A DNA stretch of 64,000 bases from the NCBI RefSeq assembly GCF_058153355.1, contig NZ_CM177019.1. One strand, given 5' to 3'. Shown here in pieces: positions 15,347-63,767 of the stretch. The notes beneath the pieces were generated by a model. It saw only the letters and a list, made by a program, of their open reading frames with translations, did no database searches and was not told where the DNA came from. A program made the translations under genes and the position numbers. Position 1 is the stretch's first letter, and every line of letters begins with the position of its first letter.

Positions 15347-15458
15347 CCCCGGCTAGACCGGGGTGCGCGAATACTGCGCCAACACCAGGGAAATCTTGGC
15401 TGCGCCGTAAATTATTATGATGAGTTACAAGGGCACAGCACTGTTTTTCAGGCCGCAC
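15338..15458 (-). ncRNA. arcZ: ArcZ small RNA (Hfq-dependent), antisense to the arcB 3' end
   Basis: The reverse complement of ~15338-15458 matches the ArcZ sequence as I recall it (GTGCGGCCTGAAAAACAGTGCTGTGCCCTTGTAACTCATCATAATAATTTACGGCGCAGCCAAGATTTCCCTGGTGTTGGCGCAGTATTCGCGCACCCCGGTCTAGCCGGGGTCATTTTTT), with terminator hairpin CCCCGG/CCGGGG and T-run overlapping the arcB stop. Confidence 0.75.
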
Positions 15459-29539: not shown

Positions 29540-30799
<1,260 letters not shown>

Positions 30800-30846
30800 T
30801 CGTCCGAGAGCTGGCAGCCCCGTTCGCGGGGCTACCGCCAGACCAC

Positions 30847-31125
30847 TCATTTTTTCGGTTTAGTGTAGCTACGCATCAACTGCGTTCTGTCGATAAACTC
30901 ATGGGTCTGCGGATCATGGTAGCGTGATGGCCAGATAACCCAGGGGTCAGTTCCCAGGGCTTTCGCAATAATCATCTCTCCTTTCGGCCATGGGCGCGAT
31001 AATGCGTTCGCCAGCGTTGAGGAACTCAAACCATTTCTACGAGATTCCGCCGCCATTGACGTTCCTTTCTTGCGTAAACCCGCAATGATGTCAGCGGGAT
31101 GCCAGTCAATGAAATTACTTTCCAT
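30847..31125 (-). CDS. sfsB: Ner-like DNA-binding transcriptional regulator
   Basis: 92-aa ORF; small basic HTH protein in the expected position between murA and ispB. Confidence 0.8.
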   Translation of the reverse strand: MESNFIDWHPADIIAGLRKKGTSMAAESRRNGLSSSTLANALSRPWPKGEMIIAKALGTDPWVIWPSRYHDPQTHEFIDRTQLMRSYTKPKK

Positions 31126-31353
31126 CTTTCCTCACTCCTTAAGTTAGTCGCTTTCATTCAGAACACTTCTTCTGTCGAGCATCACTATACTCCTGATGGC
31201 CTATTGCTCTAAAAAGTTCCTGTAAAGAGTGTGAATATTCAGAATATATAAAGATACATACACTGGTTTTTCAGGCGTTATTACGCTGAATAAGTGTTTT
31301 TATGGAACTTATTGGAATCATCCCGCGCACTGCGCGGGATGAGGGGGAGGGGA

Positions 31354-32325
31354 TTAACGATCGCGTTGAACAGCGATGTGCGCGAGGCCGATGAGTGCTT
31401 CTCGCCACGGGGTGTCCGGGAGCACCTGTAACGCTGCGATGGCTTTGTCTGCTTCTTCCTCGGCACGCTGACGCGTCCATTCAAGAGAGCCACAAGCGTT
31501 CATTGCTTCCAGAACCGGTTCCAGAAGATGACGACCGTTACCCTGTTCGATGGCGGTACGAATCATCTGTGCCTGTTCTGGTGTGCCATGATGCATTGCA
31601 TGCAGCAGCGGCAGCGTCGGTTTACCTTCGTTCAGATCGTCGCCGACGTTTTTACCTAACTGTTCGCCATCGGCATTGTAATCGAGTAAATCGTCAATCA
31701 ACTGGAAAGCGGTGCCGAGATAACGCCCATAATCCTGCAGGCCTTTCTCCTCCTCCGGCGTACAGCCAGCCAGAATCCCGGAACACTGCGCGGCAGCCTC
31801 AAACAGACGCGCGGTTTTGCTATAGATAACGCGCATGTAGTTTTCTTCGGTGATGTCCGGATCGTTAACGTTCATCAGTTGCAGAACTTCACCTTCTGCG
31901 ATGACGTTTACGGCTTCTGACATGACTTCCAGCACTTTGAGCGAACCGAGGCTGGTCATCATCTGGAACGCGCGGGTATAAATAAAATCGCCTACCAGCA
32001 CGCTGGCGGCATTGCCAAATGCGGCGTTGGCGGTAGCTTTACCCCTGCGCATATCTGATTCATCCACAACGTCGTCGTGCAGCAGAGTCGCCGTGTGGAT
32101 AAACTCGATCAGGGCAGCAATGGTGACATGCGCATTTCCCTCATAGCCAACAGCTCGTGCAGCCAGTACAGCAATCATCGGACGAATACGTTTACCGCCG
32201 CCGCTGACGATGTAATAGCCTAACTGATTGATCAGTTGGACGTCGGAATTAAGCTGCTCAAGGATTGCCGCATTAACACCCGCCATATCTTGCGCGGTTA
32301 ACTCATTGATTTTTTCTAAATTCAT
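31354..32325 (-). CDS. ispB: Octaprenyl diphosphate synthase
   Basis: 323-aa ORF with polyprenyl synthase Asp-rich motifs (LLHDDVVDESD and DDLLDY). Confidence 0.9.
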   Translation of the reverse strand: MNLEKINELTAQDMAGVNAAILEQLNSDVQLINQLGYYIVSGGGKRIRPMIAVLAARAVGYEGNAHVTIAALIEFIHTATLLHDDVVDESDMRRGKATANAAFGNAASVLVGDFIYTRAFQMMTSLGSLKVLEVMSEAVNVIAEGEVLQLMNVNDPDITEENYMRVIYSKTARLFEAAAQCSGILAGCTPEEEKGLQDYGRYLGTAFQLIDDLLDYNADGEQLGKNVGDDLNEGKPTLPLLHAMHHGTPEQAQMIRTAIEQGNGRHLLEPVLEAMNACGSLEWTRQRAEEEADKAIAALQVLPDTPWREALIGLAHIAVQRDR

Positions 32326-32547
32326 CGCAAAAGCCGGGCTTTTCGCCCCGATTACCTTACTGTGAACAAAGGCAACTTAGGGTTTATGGTTAGGAATATA
32401 GGGTGATTGTACTGAAAAAATGGCACAGATAAACGTTACCGTACAAGTTGTGTTTTTTTTCTTCGTGTATTGACTGTAGCACTTGTCAAAGGCGTGCGTT
32501 TTGCGTAATATTCGCGCCCTATTGTGAATATTTATAGCGCACTCTGA

Positions 32548-33173
<626 letters not shown>

Positions 33174-33198
33174 GTTTTTCGCGTCCCGGTAACGGATG

Positions 33199-33228
33199 AA
33201 AGCCCCGCAACACGTTGCGGGGCTTTTT
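33199..33228 (+). terminator. Rho-independent terminator after rpmA
   Basis: AGCCCCGCAA-CACG-TTGCGGGGCT followed by TTTTT. Confidence 0.8.
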
Positions 33229-33299
33229 ACATTCGATAACCGGTAAAAATTCGCATCGTGCGGCGTTAACTCGCAAATGCGTTTTGTAGGGAATACGGT

Positions 33300-34265
33300 A
33301 TGAAGCAGCAGGCAGGCATTGGCATTCTTTTGGCGCTCACCACAGCAATTTGCTGGGGGGCGTTGCCAATTGCAATGAAGCAGGTGCTGGAGGTGATGGA
33401 ACCTCCGACAATCGTGTTTTACCGTTTCTTGATGGCGAGTATTGGCCTTGGTGCCATTCTTGCGGTGAAGAAGAGGTTGCCGCCATTACGCGTGTTTCGT
33501 AAGCCACGCTGGTTGATTTTGTTGGCAGTGGCGACCGCCGGGCTGTTTGGGAACTTCATCCTGTTCAGCTCATCCTTGCAATACCTGAGTCCGACCGCTT
33601 CGCAGGTGATTGGTCAACTCTCGCCAGTTGGCATGATGGTTGCCAGCGTATTTATCCTGAAAGAGAAAATGCGCAGCACCCAGGTAGTGGGGGCATTGAT
33701 GCTCCTGAGCGGCCTGGTGATGTTTTTTAACACCAGTCTGGTTGAGATATTTACAAAGCTCACCGATTACACCTGGGGAGTTATCTTTGGGGTCGGTGCG
33801 GCGACGGTTTGGGTGAGTTATGGCGTAGCGCAGAAGGTTTTATTGCGTCGGCTGGCCTCACCGCAGATCCTGTTTTTGCTGTACACTTTATGTACAATTG
33901 CGCTCTTCCCTCTGGCAAATCCTGGAGTGATAGCGCAGCTTAGCCACTGGCAGCTCGCATGTTTAATTTTTTGCGGACTGAATACATTGGTAGGATATGG
34001 CGCCCTGGCGGAAGCGATGGCTCGCTGGCAGGCAGCGCAGGTGAGCGCGATCATCACGCTCACCCCACTGTTTACGCTGTTTTTTTCAGATCTTTTATCA
34101 CTGGCCTGGCCCGATTTCTTCGCCAGACCGATGTTAAACCTTTTAGGTTATCTCGGTGCGTTTGTCGTGGTTGCGGGCGCGATGTATTCCGCCATTGGTC
34201 ATCGTATTTGGGGCGGATTACGTAAGCATACAACGGTGGTATCGCAACCCCGCGCAGGCGAATGA
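33300..34265 (+). CDS. yhbE: EamA/DMT-family inner-membrane transporter
   Basis: 321-aa polytopic ORF upstream of obgE. Confidence 0.8.
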   Translation: MKQQAGIGILLALTTAICWGALPIAMKQVLEVMEPPTIVFYRFLMASIGLGAILAVKKRLPPLRVFRKPRWLILLAVATAGLFGNFILFSSSLQYLSPTASQVIGQLSPVGMMVASVFILKEKMRSTQVVGALMLLSGLVMFFNTSLVEIFTKLTDYTWGVIFGVGAATVWVSYGVAQKVLLRRLASPQILFLLYTLCTIALFPLANPGVIAQLSHWQLACLIFCGLNTLVGYGALAEAMARWQAAQVSAIITLTPLFTLFFSDLLSLAWPDFFARPMLNLLGYLGAFVVVAGAMYSAIGHRIWGGLRKHTTVVSQPRAGE

Positions 34266-36927: not shown

Positions 36928-37009
36928 AATCTCGCGCTAACAACCTGGAATCGAGCCGTCATACTACGGCGCAACGCCCTATAAAGTAAACGATGACCCT
37001 TCGGGAACT

Positions 37010-37080
37010 TCAGGGTAAAATGACTATCAAAATGTGAATTGTAGCTGACCTGGGACTTGTACCCGGGTCGGTATTTTTTT
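37010..37080 (+). ncRNA. graL: greA leader region with intrinsic attenuator (GraL-type leader RNA)
   Basis: Hairpin GACCTGGG…CCCGGGTC followed by TATTTTTTT about 100 nt upstream of the greA start; a leader-derived sRNA is described for greA. Exact ends not determinable from sequence. Confidence 0.4.
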
Positions 37081-43730: not shown

Positions 43731-43817
43731 TGCCGAGGTGGTGGAATTGGTAGACACGCTACCTTGAGGTGGTAGTGCCCAATAGGGCTTACGGGTTCAA
43801 GTCCCGTCCTCGGTACC
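43731..43817 (+). tRNA. leuU: tRNA-Leu (anticodon GAG)
   Basis: GCCGAGGTGGTGGAATTGGTAGACACGCTACCTTGAGGTGGTAGTGCCCAATAGGGCTTACGGGTTCAAGTCCCGTCCTCGGTACCA; cloverleaf with long variable arm, anticodon loop UUGAGGU, encoded CCA end. Confidence 0.9.
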
Positions 43818-47598: not shown

Positions 47599-47675
<77 letters not shown>

Positions 47676-47797
47676 CTTTCCCTTAGAGTCCTTTTTCAAA
47701 TATACTGTGAAGACTTCGGCCTTCGTAGTGGGATTTGAAAAAATCCTTCTGGAAAGTGCTCCAGACCGCAGTTGCGGTTATAGGGTTCAGTTATATA

Positions 47798-47822
47798 AAG
47801 CCCCGATTTATCGGGGTTTTTT
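47798..47822 (+). terminator. Intrinsic terminator/attenuator between metY and rimP
   Basis: AAAGCCCCGA-TTTA-TCGGGG followed by TTTTTT. Confidence 0.65.
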
Positions 47823-47881
47823 GTTATCTGACTACAGAATAACTGGGCTTTAGGCCCTTTTTTTATGTCTTGGGGGTGGGC

Positions 47882-52562: not shown

Positions 52563-52636
52563 TGCGGGATAAGGCGTTTACGCTGCATCCGGCATGGATT
52601 GCCTGATGCGACGCTGGCGCGTCTTATCAGGCCTAC
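52563..52636. repeat. Pair of inverted REP elements (BIME-like) between infB and rbfA
   Basis: TGCGGGATAAGGCGTTTACGCTGCATCCGGCA and GCCTGATGCGACGCTGGCGCGTCTTATCAGGCCTAC read directly. Confidence 0.75.
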
Positions 52637-54107: not shown

Positions 54108-54473
<366 letters not shown>

Positions 54474-54490
54474 TTCTTGCGAGTTTCAGA

Positions 54491-54516
54491 AAAGGGGCCT
54501 GAGTGGCCCCTTTTTT
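54491..54516 (+). terminator. rpsO rho-independent terminator
   Basis: AAAAGGGGCC-TGAGT-GGCCCC followed by TTTTTT. Confidence 0.85.
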
Positions 54517-54519
54517 CAA

Positions 54520-54718
54520 ACTGACGGCAGCAATTCACTGGAAACTAATGTATTGTTGCTATGAATGATCTTCCGTTGCAGAGGTTCGCGCGGCTAATGA
54601 GAGGCTTTACCCACATTGGGCTGGGTTAGGGTTGTCATTAGTCGCGAGGATGCGCAGAAGATCGGGTATTAACACCAGTGCCGTAAGGTGCTGTCTAAGA
54701 AAGAGAAAGGATATTACA
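54520..54718 (+). promoter_or_regulatory. pnp promoter/leader with long stem-loop (autoregulatory RNase III-processed leader in E. coli)
   Basis: ~200-nt untranslated region ending at a UUG start; extended pairing potential across 54590-54680; function assigned from what is known of pnp regulation. Confidence 0.55.
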
Positions 54719-57953: not shown

Positions 57954-58034
57954 ATGAAAATTGCTGATCAATTTCATGATGAGTTATGTAGACTGGCCGC
58001 CATTAATTTTGAGGCACACGTACTACATGGCTGA
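57954..58034 (+). CDS. yrbN: Small ORF (26 aa) in the deaD leader, overlapping the deaD start codon
   Basis: ATG 57954 … TGA 58032-58034 encodes [26 protein letters not shown], consistent with the small protein YrbN as I recall it; below the ORF-track size cutoff. Confidence 0.5.
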
Positions 58035-59916
58035 ATTCGAAACCACTTTTGCAGATCTGGGCCTGAAGGCTCCTATCCTTGAAGCCCTTAACGATCTGGG
58101 TTACGAAAAACCATCTCCAATTCAGGCAGAGTGTATTCCACATCTGCTGAATGGCCGCGACGTTCTGGGTATGGCCCAGACGGGGAGCGGAAAAACTGCA
58201 GCATTCTCTTTACCTCTGCTGCAAAATCTTGATCCTGAGCTGAAAGCACCACAGATTCTGGTGCTGGCACCGACCCGCGAACTGGCGGTACAGGTTGCTG
58301 AGGCAATGACGGATTTCTCTAAACACATGCGCGGCGTAAACGTGGTTGCCCTGTACGGCGGCCAGCGTTATGACGTGCAATTACGCGCCCTGCGTCAGGG
58401 GCCGCAGATCGTTGTCGGTACTCCAGGCCGTCTGCTGGACCACCTGAAACGTGGCACTCTGGACCTCTCTAAACTGAGCGGTCTGGTTCTGGATGAAGCT
58501 GACGAAATGCTGCGCATGGGCTTCATCGAAGACGTTGAAACCATTATGGCGCAGATCCCGGAAGGTCATCAGACCGCTCTGTTCTCTGCAACTATGCCGG
58601 AAGCGATTCGTCGTATTACCCGCCGCTTTATGAAAGAGCCGCAGGAAGTGCGCATTCAGTCCAGCGTGACTACCCGTCCTGACATCAGCCAGAGCTACTG
58701 GACTGTGTGGGGGATGCGTAAAAACGAAGCACTGGTACGTTTCCTGGAAGCGGAAGATTTTGATGCGGCGATTATCTTCGTTCGTACCAAAAACGCGACT
58801 TTGGAAGTGGCAGAAGCTCTTGAGCGTAACGGCTACAACAGCGCTGCACTGAACGGTGACATGAACCAGGCGCTGCGTGAGCAGACGCTGGAACGCCTGA
58901 AAGATGGTCGTCTGGATATCCTGATTGCGACCGACGTTGCGGCCCGTGGCCTGGACGTTGAGCGTATCAGCCTGGTAGTTAACTACGATATCCCGATGGA
59001 TTCTGAGTCTTACGTTCACCGTATTGGTCGTACCGGCCGTGCGGGGCGTGCTGGTCGTGCGCTGCTGTTCGTTGAGAACCGCGAGCGTCGTCTGCTGCGC
59101 AACATTGAACGCACTATGAAGCTGACCATTCCGGAAGTAGAACTGCCGAACGCAGAGCTGCTGGGCAAACGCCGTCTGGAAAAATTCGCCGCTAAAGTAC
59201 AGCAGCAGCTGGAAAGCAGCGATCTGGATCAATACCGTGCACTGCTGAGCAAAATTCAGCCGACTGCAGAAGGTGAAGAGCTGGATCTCGAAACTCTGGC
59301 AGCCGCACTGCTGAAAATGGCACAGGGTGAACGTACTCTGATCGTGCCGCCAGATGCGCCGATGCGTCCGAAACGTGAATTCCGCGACCGTGACGACCGT
59401 GGTCCGCGCGATCGTAACGACCGTGGCCCGCGTGGCGACCGTGAAGATCGTCCGCGTCGTGAACGTCGTGATGTTGGCGATATGCAGCTGTACCGTATTG
59501 AAGTGGGCCGCGATGATGGTGTTGAAGTTCGTCATATCGTTGGCGCGATTGCTAACGAAGGCGACATCAGCAGCCGTTACATCGGTAATATCAAGCTGTT
59601 TGCTTCTCACTCCACCATCGAACTGCCGAAAGGTATGCCGGGTGAAGTGCTGCAACACTTTACGCGTACTCGCATTCTTAACAAGCCGATGAACATGCAG
59701 TTGCTGGGCGATGCACAGCCGCATACTGGTGGTGAGCGTCGTGGCGGTGGTCGTGGTTTCGGTGGCGAACGTCGTGAAGGCGGTCGTAACTTCAGCGGTG
59801 AACGCCGTGAAGGTGGTCGTGGTGATGGTCGTCGTTTTAGCGGCGAACGTCGTGAAGGCCGCGCACCGCGCCGTGATGACTCTACCGGTCGTCGTCGTTT
59901 CGGTGGTGATGCGTAA
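58027..59916 (+). CDS. deaD: Cold-shock DEAD-box RNA helicase
   Basis: ORF 57961..59916; conserved start [21 protein letters not shown] at ATG 58027; motifs [25 protein letters not shown]; Arg/Gly-rich C-terminal tail; 629 aa. Confidence 0.9.
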
Positions 59917-59941
59917 TCATCGCTGATTAGCGAACACAATC

Positions 59942-59959
59942 TGTAAAATAATATATACA
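59942..59959. promoter_or_regulatory. TyrR box (TGTAAA-N6-TATACA) upstream of mtr
   Basis: TGTAAAATAATATATACA read directly; mtr is a TyrR-regulated gene. Confidence 0.55.
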
Positions 59960-59990
59960 GCCCCGATTTTAACCATCGGGGCTTTTTTTC
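59958..59990 (+). terminator. deaD rho-independent terminator
   Basis: AGCCCCGAT-TTTAACC-ATCGGGGCT followed by TTTTTTT. Confidence 0.8.
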
Positions 59991-59998
59991 TGTCTTTT

Positions 59999-60018
59999 GT
60001 ACTCGTGTACTGGTACAG
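59999..60018. promoter_or_regulatory. TrpR operator-like palindrome in the mtr promoter
   Basis: GTACTCGTGTACTGGTACAG (trp operator-like GTACT…GTAC half-sites) about 50 bp upstream of the mtr ATG. Confidence 0.6.
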
Positions 60019-60069
60019 TGCAATACATAACAACGTAGTCGCACTATTTTTCACTGGAGAGAAGCCCAC

Positions 60070-61314
60070 ATGGCAACACTAACCACCACCCAAACGTCAC
60101 CGTCGCTGCTTGGCGGCGTGGTGATTATCGGCGGCACCATTATTGGCGCAGGGATGTTTTCTCTGCCAGTGGTCATGTCCGGTGCGTGGTTCTTCTGGTC
60201 AATGGCGGCGCTGATCTTTACCTGGTTTTGTATGCTGCATTCCGGCTTGATGATTCTGGAAGCTAACCTGAATTACCGAATCGGCTCGAGCTTTGACACC
60301 ATCACCAAAGACTTGCTGGGCAAAGGCTGGAACGTGGTCAACGGCATATCCATTGCCTTTGTGCTCTATATCCTGACCTATGCCTATATTTCTGCCAGTG
60401 GTTCGATTCTGCATCACACCTTTGCAGAGATGTCGCTGAATGTCCCGGCACGGGCGGCGGGATTTGGTTTTGCACTGTTGGTGGCGTTCGTGGTGTGGTT
60501 GAGCACTAAAGCCGTCAGCCGGATGACGGCGATTGTACTTGGGGCGAAAGTTATTACCTTCTTCCTCACTTTCGGCAGTTTGCTGGGGCATGTGCAGCCT
60601 GCGACATTGTTTAACGTCGCGGAAAGCAATGCGTCTTATGCACCGTATCTGTTGATGACCCTGCCGTTCTGTCTGGCCTCATTTGGTTATCACGGTAACG
60701 TGCCGAGCCTGATGAAGTATTACGGCAAAGATCCGAAAACTATCGTGAAATGTCTGGTCTACGGTACGCTGATGGCGCTGGCGCTGTATACCATCTGGTT
60801 GCTGGCGACGATGGGCAACATCCCTCGTCCGGAGTTTATCGGCATCGCCGAGAAGGGCGGTAATATTGATGTGCTGGTACAGGCGTTAAGCGGCGTGCTG
60901 AACAGTCGTAGTCTGGATCTGCTGCTGGTCGTGTTCTCAAACTTTGCGGTAGCGAGTTCGTTCCTCGGTGTTACGCTGGGTTTGTTTGACTATCTGGCAG
61001 ATCTGTTTGGTTTCGATGACTCAGCTGTGGGACGCTTGAAAACGGCACTGTTGACCTTCGCACCGCCTGTTGTGGGTGGTTTGCTGTTCCCGAACGGATT
61101 CCTGTACGCCATTGGTTATGCTGGCTTAGCGGCTACCATCTGGGCGGCAATCGTTCCGGCGCTGCTGGCCCGCGCATCGCGTAAACGCTTTGGCAGCCCG
61201 AAATTCCGTGTCTGGGGCGGCAAGCCGATGATTGCACTGATTCTGGTGTTTGGCGTTGGCAACGCACTGGTGCATATTTTATCGAGCTTTAATTTGCTGC
61301 CGGTGTATCAGTAA
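60070..61314 (+). CDS. mtr: Tryptophan-specific permease
   Basis: 414-aa polytopic [36 protein letters not shown]…. Confidence 0.9.
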
Positions 61315-61322
61315 TTGAACGA

Positions 61323-61347
61323 GCCGGATGAGCAGTTTTCATCCGGC
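61323..61347. terminator. Hairpin between mtr and the convergent 176-aa ORF
   Basis: GCCGGATGA-GCAGTTT-TCATCCGGC; no strong T-run, possibly bidirectional. Confidence 0.5.
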
Positions 61348-61373
61348 AATATTCCATAGTGCGCGCGAGGTAA

Positions 61374-61904
61374 TCAAATATATCCTTGTTTATTATAAAG
61401 TTCTTCGGCAAGTGCTTCCCCATGTTCATCGAAAAATGCATTGGCGATCTTTAAATTATTCTCCTCAGGATTTGCCGTTATCCTGCTACCATTGGAATCA
61501 AATTCGAGCGCGATGGCGATCTCCGACCCCCACCAGTAATCATAAATTAGCGCAAAATTATTTTCCCCTGGCGTAATAAATTTCTCGATGCCTCGCACAC
61601 AGGCCATGAGTGGTATGAAGATTTCATAGCTCTCTGAGAGAAATATATGATCCATCGTGACTATCTGTGTTTCTTTATTAAAGTTGATATGTTCGGCATA
61701 AATATTCTTTTCACTTTCACCAGAATTACAAGCTGCAAGATTGTTAAGCATTTTTGCAGGATCGCCGTACAACCGCTGCTTCTCGATAAACCATGGCAAC
61801 CAGTCGTCATGGTCTTTGATATTTGTTGCTGGTGAATGGAAAAACTTCTCGAGGTTACTCTCGGTAATATGTGTATGAAGAAAAAAGGAAGCCGGTTCAC
61901 TCAT
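61374..61904 (-). CDS. Hypothetical protein (176 aa), no recognisable domain; first gene of the AT-rich islet between mtr and yhbW
   Basis: Uninterrupted ORF in AT-rich DNA with a plausible start context; no signal peptide seen; Trp/Tyr-rich (IYDYWWGSEIAIALEFD). Confidence 0.55.
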   Translation of the reverse strand: MSEPASFFLHTHITESNLEKFFHSPATNIKDHDDWLPWFIEKQRLYGDPAKMLNNLAACNSGESEKNIYAEHINFNKETQIVTMDHIFLSESYEIFIPLMACVRGIEKFITPGENNFALIYDYWWGSEIAIALEFDSNGSRITANPEENNLKIANAFFDEHGEALAEELYNKQGYI

Positions 61905-62062
61905 AATGATTTTCTCTGGTAATAAGTCGATTTGTTCATTTCTCTGTTTGGCGATGATAAAACGATGACTATTTTATAAAAGTACAGAACTGGACCTTTC
62001 ATCTATTTCCTATCATAGGAAAATATATACTTGAACTGGATCAGAATAAGCGGAATACGAAA

Positions 62063-62782
62063 ATGGGGTGTAAAGGATTACTCGCTATTGTATTGTTGAG
62101 CCTGTTTATCGCTTTTATTTTAAAAATTTTCTGGCCCACCCCGCACGATGAACATCTTTTCCTGCCCGTTGAAAAACCTTTCGTATCGTCTTTAAAAATC
62201 ATTCGCCCCGGCGACCAGTTATTTATCCGCATTCTGAAAGCGGAAGATAAGCTGGAACTGTGGGCAAGCATCAACAACAAGCCTTACGAACTCTATAAAA
62301 CCTGGACTATATGCGCGTGGTCTGGTGGCTTAGGGCCAAAACACAAACAGGGGGATGGTAAAAGCCCGGAAGGTTTTTATGCCACCAACAAAGGGTTGCT
62401 TAACCCAAACAGCCGCTATCATCTGGCATTTAATATTGGTTACCCGAATGCTTACGATCGGGCAAACGGCTACACCGGTGATTTCATTATGGTTCACGGA
62501 AACTGCGTTTCGGCGGGCTGCTATGCCATGACCGATGCTGGTATTGAAGAGATTTATCAACTGGTGGCGCAGGCGCTGAATAGCGGACAGAAGAGCGTGC
62601 CGGTGCATATCTTCCCGTTTGCGATGAACGACGAAAATATGCGCCAGGCGCAGGCATGGCCGGAATATAATTTCTGGCGTATGTTGAAGCCCGGCTATGA
62701 TTACTTTGAAAAAAATCGCCGATTGCCAACCATCAACGTTGAAAACCGGCGTTATAAAATCAGCCCAACAACTCTTCCTTAA
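62063..62782 (+). CDS. YafK/DpaA-like L,D-transpeptidase-fold (YkuD) protein with N-terminal membrane anchor or signal
   Basis: 239-aa ORF; hydrophobic N-terminus ([18 protein letters not shown]); YkuD catalytic signature [14 protein letters not shown] (His … Ser-x-Gly-Cys) and YafK-like motifs [32 protein letters not shown]. Confidence 0.65.
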
Positions 62783-63767
62783 CATCCATCGCCAGTTCAA
62801 ACGAATGCAGGCGCGCCTGGTGGTCGAAAATCTGCCCGTTAACCATAATCTCATCCGCGTCGGTTTCGCGCAGGATCGACTGCAAACCATGACGCACTTT
62901 CGCTTTATCACCCACCAGCGACATACTCAGCGCCTGCTGCACGCCATACTGCTCAGACGGTGACCAGAACTGATCCATATTTTGAATCGGTGGCGGCAGT
63001 TGCCCGGTTTCACCGCGGCGCAGCTTCACAAAGGCTTGCTGCATTGAGGTAAACAGAAATTCAGCGTCGCGGTTGCTGTCGGCGGCGATAATATTGATGC
63101 ACACCATCGCGTACGGTTTCTCCAGCCGCGCTGACGGTTTGAAGTTACTGCGATAAAGATGCAGCGCCTGGAATAGCATATCCGGTGCGAAGTGTGAGGC
63201 AAACGCGAACGGCAGACCAAGCTGCGCCGCCAGTTGTGCACTGTAAAGACTGGAGCCTAATAACCACACGGGGATTTTCTCGCCATAGCCCGGTACAGGG
63301 CGCACATGCGGATTGGGATCACGGGCGTCAAACCAGTCCACCAGCTCCGCGACATCGCGGGGGAAATTATCAATATCGCCGCTCATATGGCGACGTAGTG
63401 CCATCATTGTCCGTTGGTCACTACCTGGCGCACGACCCAGCCCCAAATCGATTCGCCCCGGATAGAGCGTATTGAGCGTACCGAACTGTTCGGCAATCAC
63501 CAACGGTGAGTGGTTTGGTAACATCACGCCGCCAGACCCCAGATGCAGCGTGGTGGTATTTGCCGCCAGATAGCCAATCAATACTGATGTTGCAGCACTG
63601 GCAATGCCAGTCATATTGTGGTGTTCCGCCAGCCAGTAGCGATGATAGCCGCGCTTTTCAGCCAGACGGGCGAGGTCGAGAGAGTGGGAGAACGCTTCTC
63701 GCGCTGAAGAACCTTCGGGGATGGGGGCCAGATCGAGTAGCGAAAACGCAATGGTTTTATCAGTCAT
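62760..63767 (-). CDS. yhbW: Luciferase-like (LLM class) flavin-dependent monooxygenase
   Basis: 335-aa [29 protein letters not shown]…; its 3' end overlaps the convergent YafK-like ORF by 23 bp. Confidence 0.85.

Follow-up and report, generated by a model that had tools for sequence, protein, structure and literature searches.

The DNA between deaD and mtr raises the question of whether mtr is preceded here by both a TyrR box and a TrpR operator, and thus whether it would be under dual control by aromatic amino acids, as an earlier note on this sequence had proposed. In the window (the whole stretch of 64,000 nucleotides that was analysed), the gene order deaD-mtr is that of K-12 and both genes are co-directional, with a spacer of 153 bp between them that holds the two motifs. 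The two coding sequences are the following:

58027 to 59916, plus strand: deaD (ATP-dependent RNA helicase), stop codon TAA at 59914-59916, identified from RefSeq deaD in the K-12 and R32_14_1F matches.
60070 to 61314, plus strand: mtr (tryptophan:H+ symporter, 414 aa), identified from the open reading frame and the RefSeq annotation under the matches.

The Mtr protein of the window was identical to that of K-12 at 414 of 414 residues. The deaD start at 58027 was deduced from the length annotated in RefSeq (1890 nt). The reading frame called by the program opens at TTG 57961, 66 nt 5' of this position, which is probably not the true start of deaD; in K-12, the stretch matching 57961-58026 overlaps the small annotated gene yrbN. 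The genes tyrR and trpR fall outside the 64-kb window.

A 601-bp query spanning the spacer found a match in 5,425 of the 5,426 complete E. coli genomes, in every case located at deaD and mtr, with an identity of about 97% for nearly all of them and of 99.7% for the goat isolate R32_14_1F alone. The window was around 97-98% identical to almost all complete E. coli genomes, and a 4-kb part of it (30000-34000) reached at least 99% identity in only 18 of the 5,426. Over the 8 kb around mtr, identity was 96.9% to K-12 and 94.5% to Escherichia whittamii. The identities over the spacer, together with the 18 genomes at 30000-34000, place the source in a rare, divergent lineage of E. coli. In addition, two genes absent from K-12 were found between mtr and yhbW (61330-62800), the first encoding a 176-aa "cytoplasmic protein" on the minus strand and the second a 239-aa L,D-transpeptidase family protein on the plus strand; the pair was present at full length in just 183 of the 5,426 complete E. 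coli genomes.

Both motifs announced for the spacer turned out to be real:

59942 to 59959, plus strand: strong (promoter-proximal) TyrR box, TGTAAAATAATATATACA, identified by consensus match, matrix score and identity to K-12.
59999 to 60016, plus strand: TrpR operator, GTACTCGTGTACTGGTAC, identified by matrix score, identity to K-12 and conservation.

The TyrR box, described in the earlier note as TGTAAA-N6-TATACA, reads TGTAAA-ATAATA-TATACA and begins where it had been placed. It showed a single mismatch to TGTAAA-N6-TTTACA (11 of 12 arm positions agree), keeping G59943 and C59958, and was the sole site in the 64-kb window with two or fewer mismatches to the TyrR consensus. Sites with at most one mismatch are expected 0.10 times per 64 kb and appeared in 9 of 100 shuffles. 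The trp-operator-like palindrome ends at 60016, two bases short of the end that had been given for it (60018). It is an imperfect palindrome, symmetric at 12 of its 18 positions, and agrees with the idealised palindrome GTACTAGTTAACTAGTAC at 14 of 18 positions; because of these four mismatches, a search of the window for the idealised trp operator with up to three mismatches found nothing.

Matrices were then built from the regulatory regions of K-12 tyrP, aroF, aroL, aroP, tyrR, tyrB, aroG, trpL, aroH, and trpR, from which consensus seeding recovered 11 TyrR boxes (tyrP, aroF, aroL, aroP, tyrR, and aroG; tyrB was dropped, as the extracted region held no convincing box) and 4 TrpR operators (trpEDCBA, aroH, trpR, and aroL). 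Both matrices were symmetric, mtr was left out of the training, and 200 first-order random sequences of 64 kb served as controls. In these scans, which the earlier note had named as the way to check its claim, both motifs ranked first in the window. The TyrR box scored 20.36 bits, against 12.27 for the runner-up and 8.8-21.4 for the training boxes, and no random sequence out of 200 equalled it. With the matrix of only four sites, the TrpR operator scored 18.92 bits, against 10.37 for the runner-up, and 1 of the 200 random sequences equalled it. The two top sites share one 153-bp spacer directly 5' of mtr, the expected target of both regulators, and the probability that two independent top sites would both fall there by chance is about (153/64000)^2, roughly 6e-6. 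Their distance from the gene had been misjudged: the motifs extend over 75 bp, from 54 to 128 bp 5' of the ATG at 60070, and so reach beyond the 80 bp that had been stated.

Alignment of the spacer with that of K-12 MG1655 revealed no difference in either motif, in the stems of the hairpin, in the T-run, or in the ribosome-binding site. Thus, with respect to the described K-12 mtr region (Sarsero, Wookey and Pittard 1991; Heatwole and Somerville 1991; summarised in PMC4374768), the strong box, the terminator stems and T-run, the operator, the -10 element, and the Shine-Dalgarno sequence are the same, whereas the window has AC changed to TT at 59928-59929, which removes the conserved C of the weak TyrR box, and four more single-base differences, located in the hairpin loop and at 60026, 60037, and 60067. 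In K-12, mtr is activated by TyrR with aromatic amino acids and repressed by TrpR (PMC4374768, PMC5343134, PMC13361465). Activation by TyrR depends on the C-terminal domain of the RNA polymerase alpha subunit (PMC4374768, PMC7142922), and mtr is named as one of five TrpR operators (PMC5343134; PMC12566513 citing Jeeves 1999). The K-12 gene has a strong, promoter-proximal TyrR box and a weak, distal one, 8 bp apart, with the centre of the strong box 42 bp 5' of the -35 element (PMC4374768). The coordinates found here reproduce both the 42-bp and the 8-bp distances, the -35 element itself having been placed by means of the 42 bp.

The region between and behind the two motifs comprises the following elements:

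59959 to 59989, plus strand: intrinsic terminator of deaD from a terminator scan, with a 9-bp stem (59959-59967/59975-59983), a 7-nt loop and a run of seven T (59983-59989).
59990 to 59995, plus strand: putative weak -35 element, CTGTCT, separated by 18 bp from the -10.
60011 to 60019, plus strand: putative extended -10 element, TGgTACAGT (hexamer TACAGT at 60014-60019), overlapping the right arm of the operator.
60026 to 60069, plus strand: putative 5' UTR of mtr, deduced from the -10 position, with the start at about 60025-60027.
60056 to 60059, plus strand: Shine-Dalgarno sequence GGAG, in a conserved CTGGAGA block.

The deaD terminator, which the earlier note had omitted, sits between the TyrR box and the TrpR operator. 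Six of its nine stem pairs are G-C, and the RNA fold reached -15.5 kcal/mol (z = -4.3). With the terminator placed 3' of the activator site and 5' of the putative promoter, the TyrR positions belong to the 3' end and the 3' UTR of deaD. A simple sigma-70 scan of 59850-60150 called no promoter, as expected for a promoter that would be weak, activator-dependent and of the extended -10 type. We therefore relied on the published 42-bp geometry and on the conserved TGgTACAGT: CTGTCT lies 42 bp 3' of the strong-box centre and 18 bp from a TG-preceded TACAGT, from which we infer a promoter of the extended -10 type, starting near 60026, as well as the exact positions of the -35, the -10, and the start site. 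On these positions, the strong box would be at about -75 and the operator would span about -27 to -10 relative to the start. Among 64 unique enterobacterial sequences aligned, the extended -10 appeared as TGGTACAGT in 51, TGGTACAAT in 8, TGGTACATT in 4, and TGGTACAGC in 1; the first two bases of the hexamer were the same in every one of the 64, and the closing T in 63 of them. An alternative promoter, TTGTAC (59997)-N16-TGCAAT (60019), was rejected, given that TGCAAT is not kept as a -10 element, other genera having TGCAGC or TGCGAC. As for the mtr 5' UTR, the published effect of GcvB on it was modest (68% of the vector control in a reporter), and the mRNA was not significantly changed.

To see how widely this arrangement is found, species-representative genomes were scanned with a DNA pattern anchored in the Mtr N-terminal coding sequence and not in the motifs. 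This search returned 120 Mtr loci, 111 of them with enough upstream sequence for analysis, in which sites were called at thresholds of at least 11 bits (TyrR box) and at least 12 bits (TrpR operator). Both sites were found in 66 of the 111 enterobacterial loci, and in 58 of these 66 the distance from box start to operator start was exactly 57 bp, the offset of the window. The genera with both sites include Escherichia, Salmonella, Citrobacter, Enterobacter, Klebsiella, Raoultella, Kluyvera, Leclercia, Kosakonia, Pluralibacter, Yokenella, and Siccibacter. One of the 66, Ewingella americana, had a spurious TyrR match (spacing -88) and was left out of the alignment. The TrpR operator was present alone in 26 loci (Buttiauxella, Cedecea, Dryocola, Rahnella, Ewingella, and Hafnia), neither site was present in 19 (Photorhabdus, Morganella, Phytobacter, Pantoea, and second mtr copies in Klebsiella and Raoultella), and the TyrR box alone was present in none of the 111. 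This distribution agrees with a published comparative reconstruction, in which 17 genomes have mtr assigned to TrpR and 5 have it assigned to TyrR.

Two groups of loci had a different upstream organisation. Klebsiella oxytoca, K. spallanzanii, and Raoultella ornithinolytica carry a second Mtr-like copy at another locus, without TyrR box or TrpR operator upstream, the deaD-linked copy having both. In Hafnia, Ewingella, and Rahnella, mtr is preceded by a more canonical TrpR operator (GTACTAGCGAACTAGTCA and similar), located, in loci with a well-called start, about 135-158 bp 5' of the ATG, with no TyrR box, which argues that TrpR control of mtr is broader than TyrR control.

Mean column identities over the 64 unique sequences were 0.47 in the 20 bp just upstream of the TyrR box, 0.97 and 0.90 in the two TyrR arms, 0.86 in the six-base spacer between them, 0.94 and 0.93 in the hairpin stems, 0.54 in the hairpin loop, 0.998 in the T-run, 1.00 and 0.998 in the operator arms, 0.78 in operator positions 6-8, to which the variation of the operator is confined, and 0.61 in the mtr 5' UTR. 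The stems keep their pairing through compensatory changes, among them C-G to U-A in four sequences and A-U to G-C in three. What is conserved in the motifs is their sequence and, in the hairpin, its structure, a pattern expected where sites for protein binding flank a terminator.

These data bear on the possibility that TGTAAA...TATACA is not a TyrR site at all but an AT-rich sequence of the deaD 3' UTR that matches by chance, or a sequence kept for the formation or stability of the deaD mRNA 3' end. Such a reading would find some support in the location of the box, which directly adjoins the terminator stem to the point that A59959 is both its final base and the first base of the stem, in the 2.4 sites per 64 kb expected with up to two mismatches to the TyrR consensus, and in the spacer between the arms, which is also fairly conserved. 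However, the score lies in the range of proven strong boxes and was matched by none of the random sequences, the arms with their G and C positions are conserved above the spacer, and conservation falls off in the 20 bp just upstream. In addition, Buttiauxella and Dryocola keep the terminator and the operator in the absence of the box, so the terminator evidently works without it, and the identical K-12 sequence has been described as a strong TyrR box. The box was also unaltered in eight purposely diverse E. coli strains, and YGTAAA-N6-TATACA was kept at the same position in about 65 species of Enterobacteriaceae. We consider the chance or deaD-related origin of the motif very improbable.

A comparable objection can be raised for the operator, in that the block GTACT-N3-GTACTGGTAC might be conserved solely as the core promoter of mtr, with its extended -10, and not for binding of TrpR. 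Indeed, the right arm coincides with the conserved TGgTACAGT, and the block departs at four positions from the ideal trp operator palindrome. A promoter alone makes no sequence demand in the stretch between -35 and -10, and yet the left arm, GTACT (59999-60003), which lies precisely there, was invariant over the 64 sequences. The matrix derived from trp, aroH, trpR, and aroL placed the block 8.5 bits above any other site of the window, and in Yersiniaceae and Hafniaceae a differently placed and more canonical operator, GTACTAGCGAACTAG, was found 5' of mtr, which indicates that control by TrpR persists even where the promoter context is different. As the literature also counts mtr among the five TrpR operators, conservation for the promoter alone can hardly be the explanation.

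Therefore, the reading of both motifs as regulator sites is preferred, and we are highly confident that the region is the classical E. coli mtr regulatory region, contained in the 153-bp spacer, with activation by TyrR and repression by TrpR. The motifs, their identity to K-12, the scores, the conservation and spacing, the terminator, and the identity of Mtr were computed here, whereas binding and the direction of regulation come from the K-12 literature. The dual aromatic amino-acid control that had been proposed is thus supported by a spacer equal to that of K-12 over both motifs, by the K-12 literature, by the matrices, and by conservation across genera, and the motifs serve, as had been anticipated, as an internal check that confirms the mtr call. 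What the earlier regulatory reading lacked, in addition to the deaD terminator, was a second, degraded TyrR box.

In the mechanism that we propose, a TyrR dimer would sit on 59942-59959, and, when bound to an aromatic amino acid, would contact the C-terminal domain of the RNA polymerase alpha subunit and so activate the weak mtr promoter in the class I manner. Tryptophan-loaded TrpR on 59999-60016 would cover the promoter spacer and the extended -10, and, as the operator covers these putative elements, TrpR would exclude RNA polymerase and mtr would be repressed when tryptophan is plentiful. Judging by the promoter anatomy, repression would thus take place by occlusion of the -10 and the spacer.

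Comparison with other systems showed both likenesses and differences. The activation mode of tyrP, aroP P3, and ipdC of Enterobacter cloacae also relies on a strong TyrR box 5' of the -35, on the activating face, with class I alpha-CTD contact (PMC4374768, PMC7142922); unlike in these cases, the activator site of the window lies in the 3' UTR of a co-directional upstream gene, with the terminator of that gene before the promoter. With the operators of trpEDCBA, aroH, trpR, and aroL, the mtr operator has in common that it is an imperfect palindrome of 18 bp ending in GTAC on both sides; like them, it would overlap core promoter elements, which are putative here, and its 18.9 bits fall inside the range of these four training operators (17.4-24.9). 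It differs from them in its CTAG cores, which are degenerate (CTCG and CTGG), and in the variation of centre positions 6-8.

The second TyrR site is found further upstream:

59912 to 59929, plus strand: position of the K-12 weak (distal) TyrR box, degraded here (CGTAATCATCGCTGATTA) with respect to K-12 (CGTAATCATCGCTGAACA), overlapping the deaD stop codon.

In K-12, CGTAATCATCGCTGAACA is the only other site of the spacer that keeps the G-N14-C arrangement, and it lies 30 bp from the strong box, centre to centre, which corresponds to the 8 bp between 22-bp boxes; for these two reasons it was taken as the weak box. The change at 59928-59929 converts its right arm from TGAACA to TGATTA, and the score drops from 6.15 bits in K-12 to -4.73 bits here. 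Consequently, the window lacks at this position the second, weak box that K-12 mtr has on the helical face of the strong one, a change that concerns the two-box architecture and leaves the strong box itself untouched. The TT allele was found in just one of the 5,426 complete E. coli genomes (R32_14_1F) and also in Escherichia whittamii. Among the 66 loci carrying both sites, mainstream E. coli was the only group with a weak box above 1 bit, and none of the genera sampled outside Escherichia had a scoring box at that position. From this distribution, the weak box looks like an innovation of mainstream E. coli that is absent from this lineage.

What the degraded box would mean for the strain is a matter of inference from the sequence. 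One possibility is that this lineage differs from K-12 in using the strong box alone, the activation through two boxes being lost or reduced and the repression by TrpR unchanged. The loss of the conserved C, the rarity of the variant, and the report that occupancy of both TyrR boxes raises mtr transcription further in K-12 (PMC4374768) speak in its favour. On the other hand, weak boxes bind cooperatively and tolerate poor sequence, and the sampled genera outside Escherichia keep the strong box in all cases with no scoring weak box, which suggests that the latter is dispensable for the core function. We regard this loss of two-box activation as possible, at somewhat less than an even chance. 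In any case, the quantitative regulation of mtr may differ from that of K-12.

A broader proposal would be that the two-box TyrR architecture is a recent addition specific to mainstream E. coli, lacking in this lineage and in E. whittamii. The ancestral module, common to the Enterobacteriaceae, would then have had one TyrR box, followed by the deaD terminator and, at the fixed 57-bp offset, by the TrpR operator. The invariant T-tract of the terminator would occupy the stretch before the -35 on which the alpha-CTD docks. Taken as a whole, this proposal is rather unlikely. If it were true, one and the same sequence would act as the tail of the deaD terminator and as part of the activation surface of mtr, and the response of the strain to phenylalanine and tyrosine would differ from that of K-12.

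Overall, the finding is mainly a consistency check, by which the mtr call is confirmed and the region is recognised as a standard part of the E. coli core genome, with the textbook dual control of the high-affinity tryptophan permease by TyrR activation and TrpR repression. This control region is already known, and nothing in it challenges current understanding. The gain is modest and comparative: strong box, terminator, and operator form a module of fixed spacing across Enterobacteriaceae, and the weak box of K-12 is lineage-specific and not found in this window. Three minor points are new: the degraded weak box, the enclosure of the deaD terminator in the fixed-spacing module, and a polymorphic operator centre.

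This last feature was observed within E. coli itself (four loci of the survey), where the centre of the operator (60004-60006, positions 6-8) is GTACTCGTG in the window and K-12, commonly GTACTCATG, and GTACTCGCG in an O157 strain; these positions are also the ones that differ from genus to genus. About 30% of the complete E. coli genomes had no 28-mer in common with a 38-mer centred on the operator. In addition, E. coli FEA3 showed a 25-bp expansion of GCAAT/GCATT pentamer repeats where the right arm of the operator meets the putative -10 (matching the window at about 60016-60025), by which the -10 sequence is displaced and the ATG of mtr lies 25 bp further off; this expansion might disturb the promoter. 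The natural variants of the weak box and of the operator centre could serve to test how these two elements tune mtr expression.

Finally, the deaD-mtr spacer matched no Rfam family at gathering thresholds. Elsewhere in the window, the following Rfam matches reached the gathering score:

15351 to 15458, minus strand: ArcZ.
36958 to 37079, plus strand: greA leader.
43732 to 43815 and 47599 to 47672, plus strand: two tRNAs.
47764 to 47864, plus strand: rimP leader.
52563 to 52633, plus strand: naRNA4.
54146 to 54260, plus strand: S15 leader.
54489 to 54660, minus strand: SraG.

All of these matches are expected for the E. coli region concerned.
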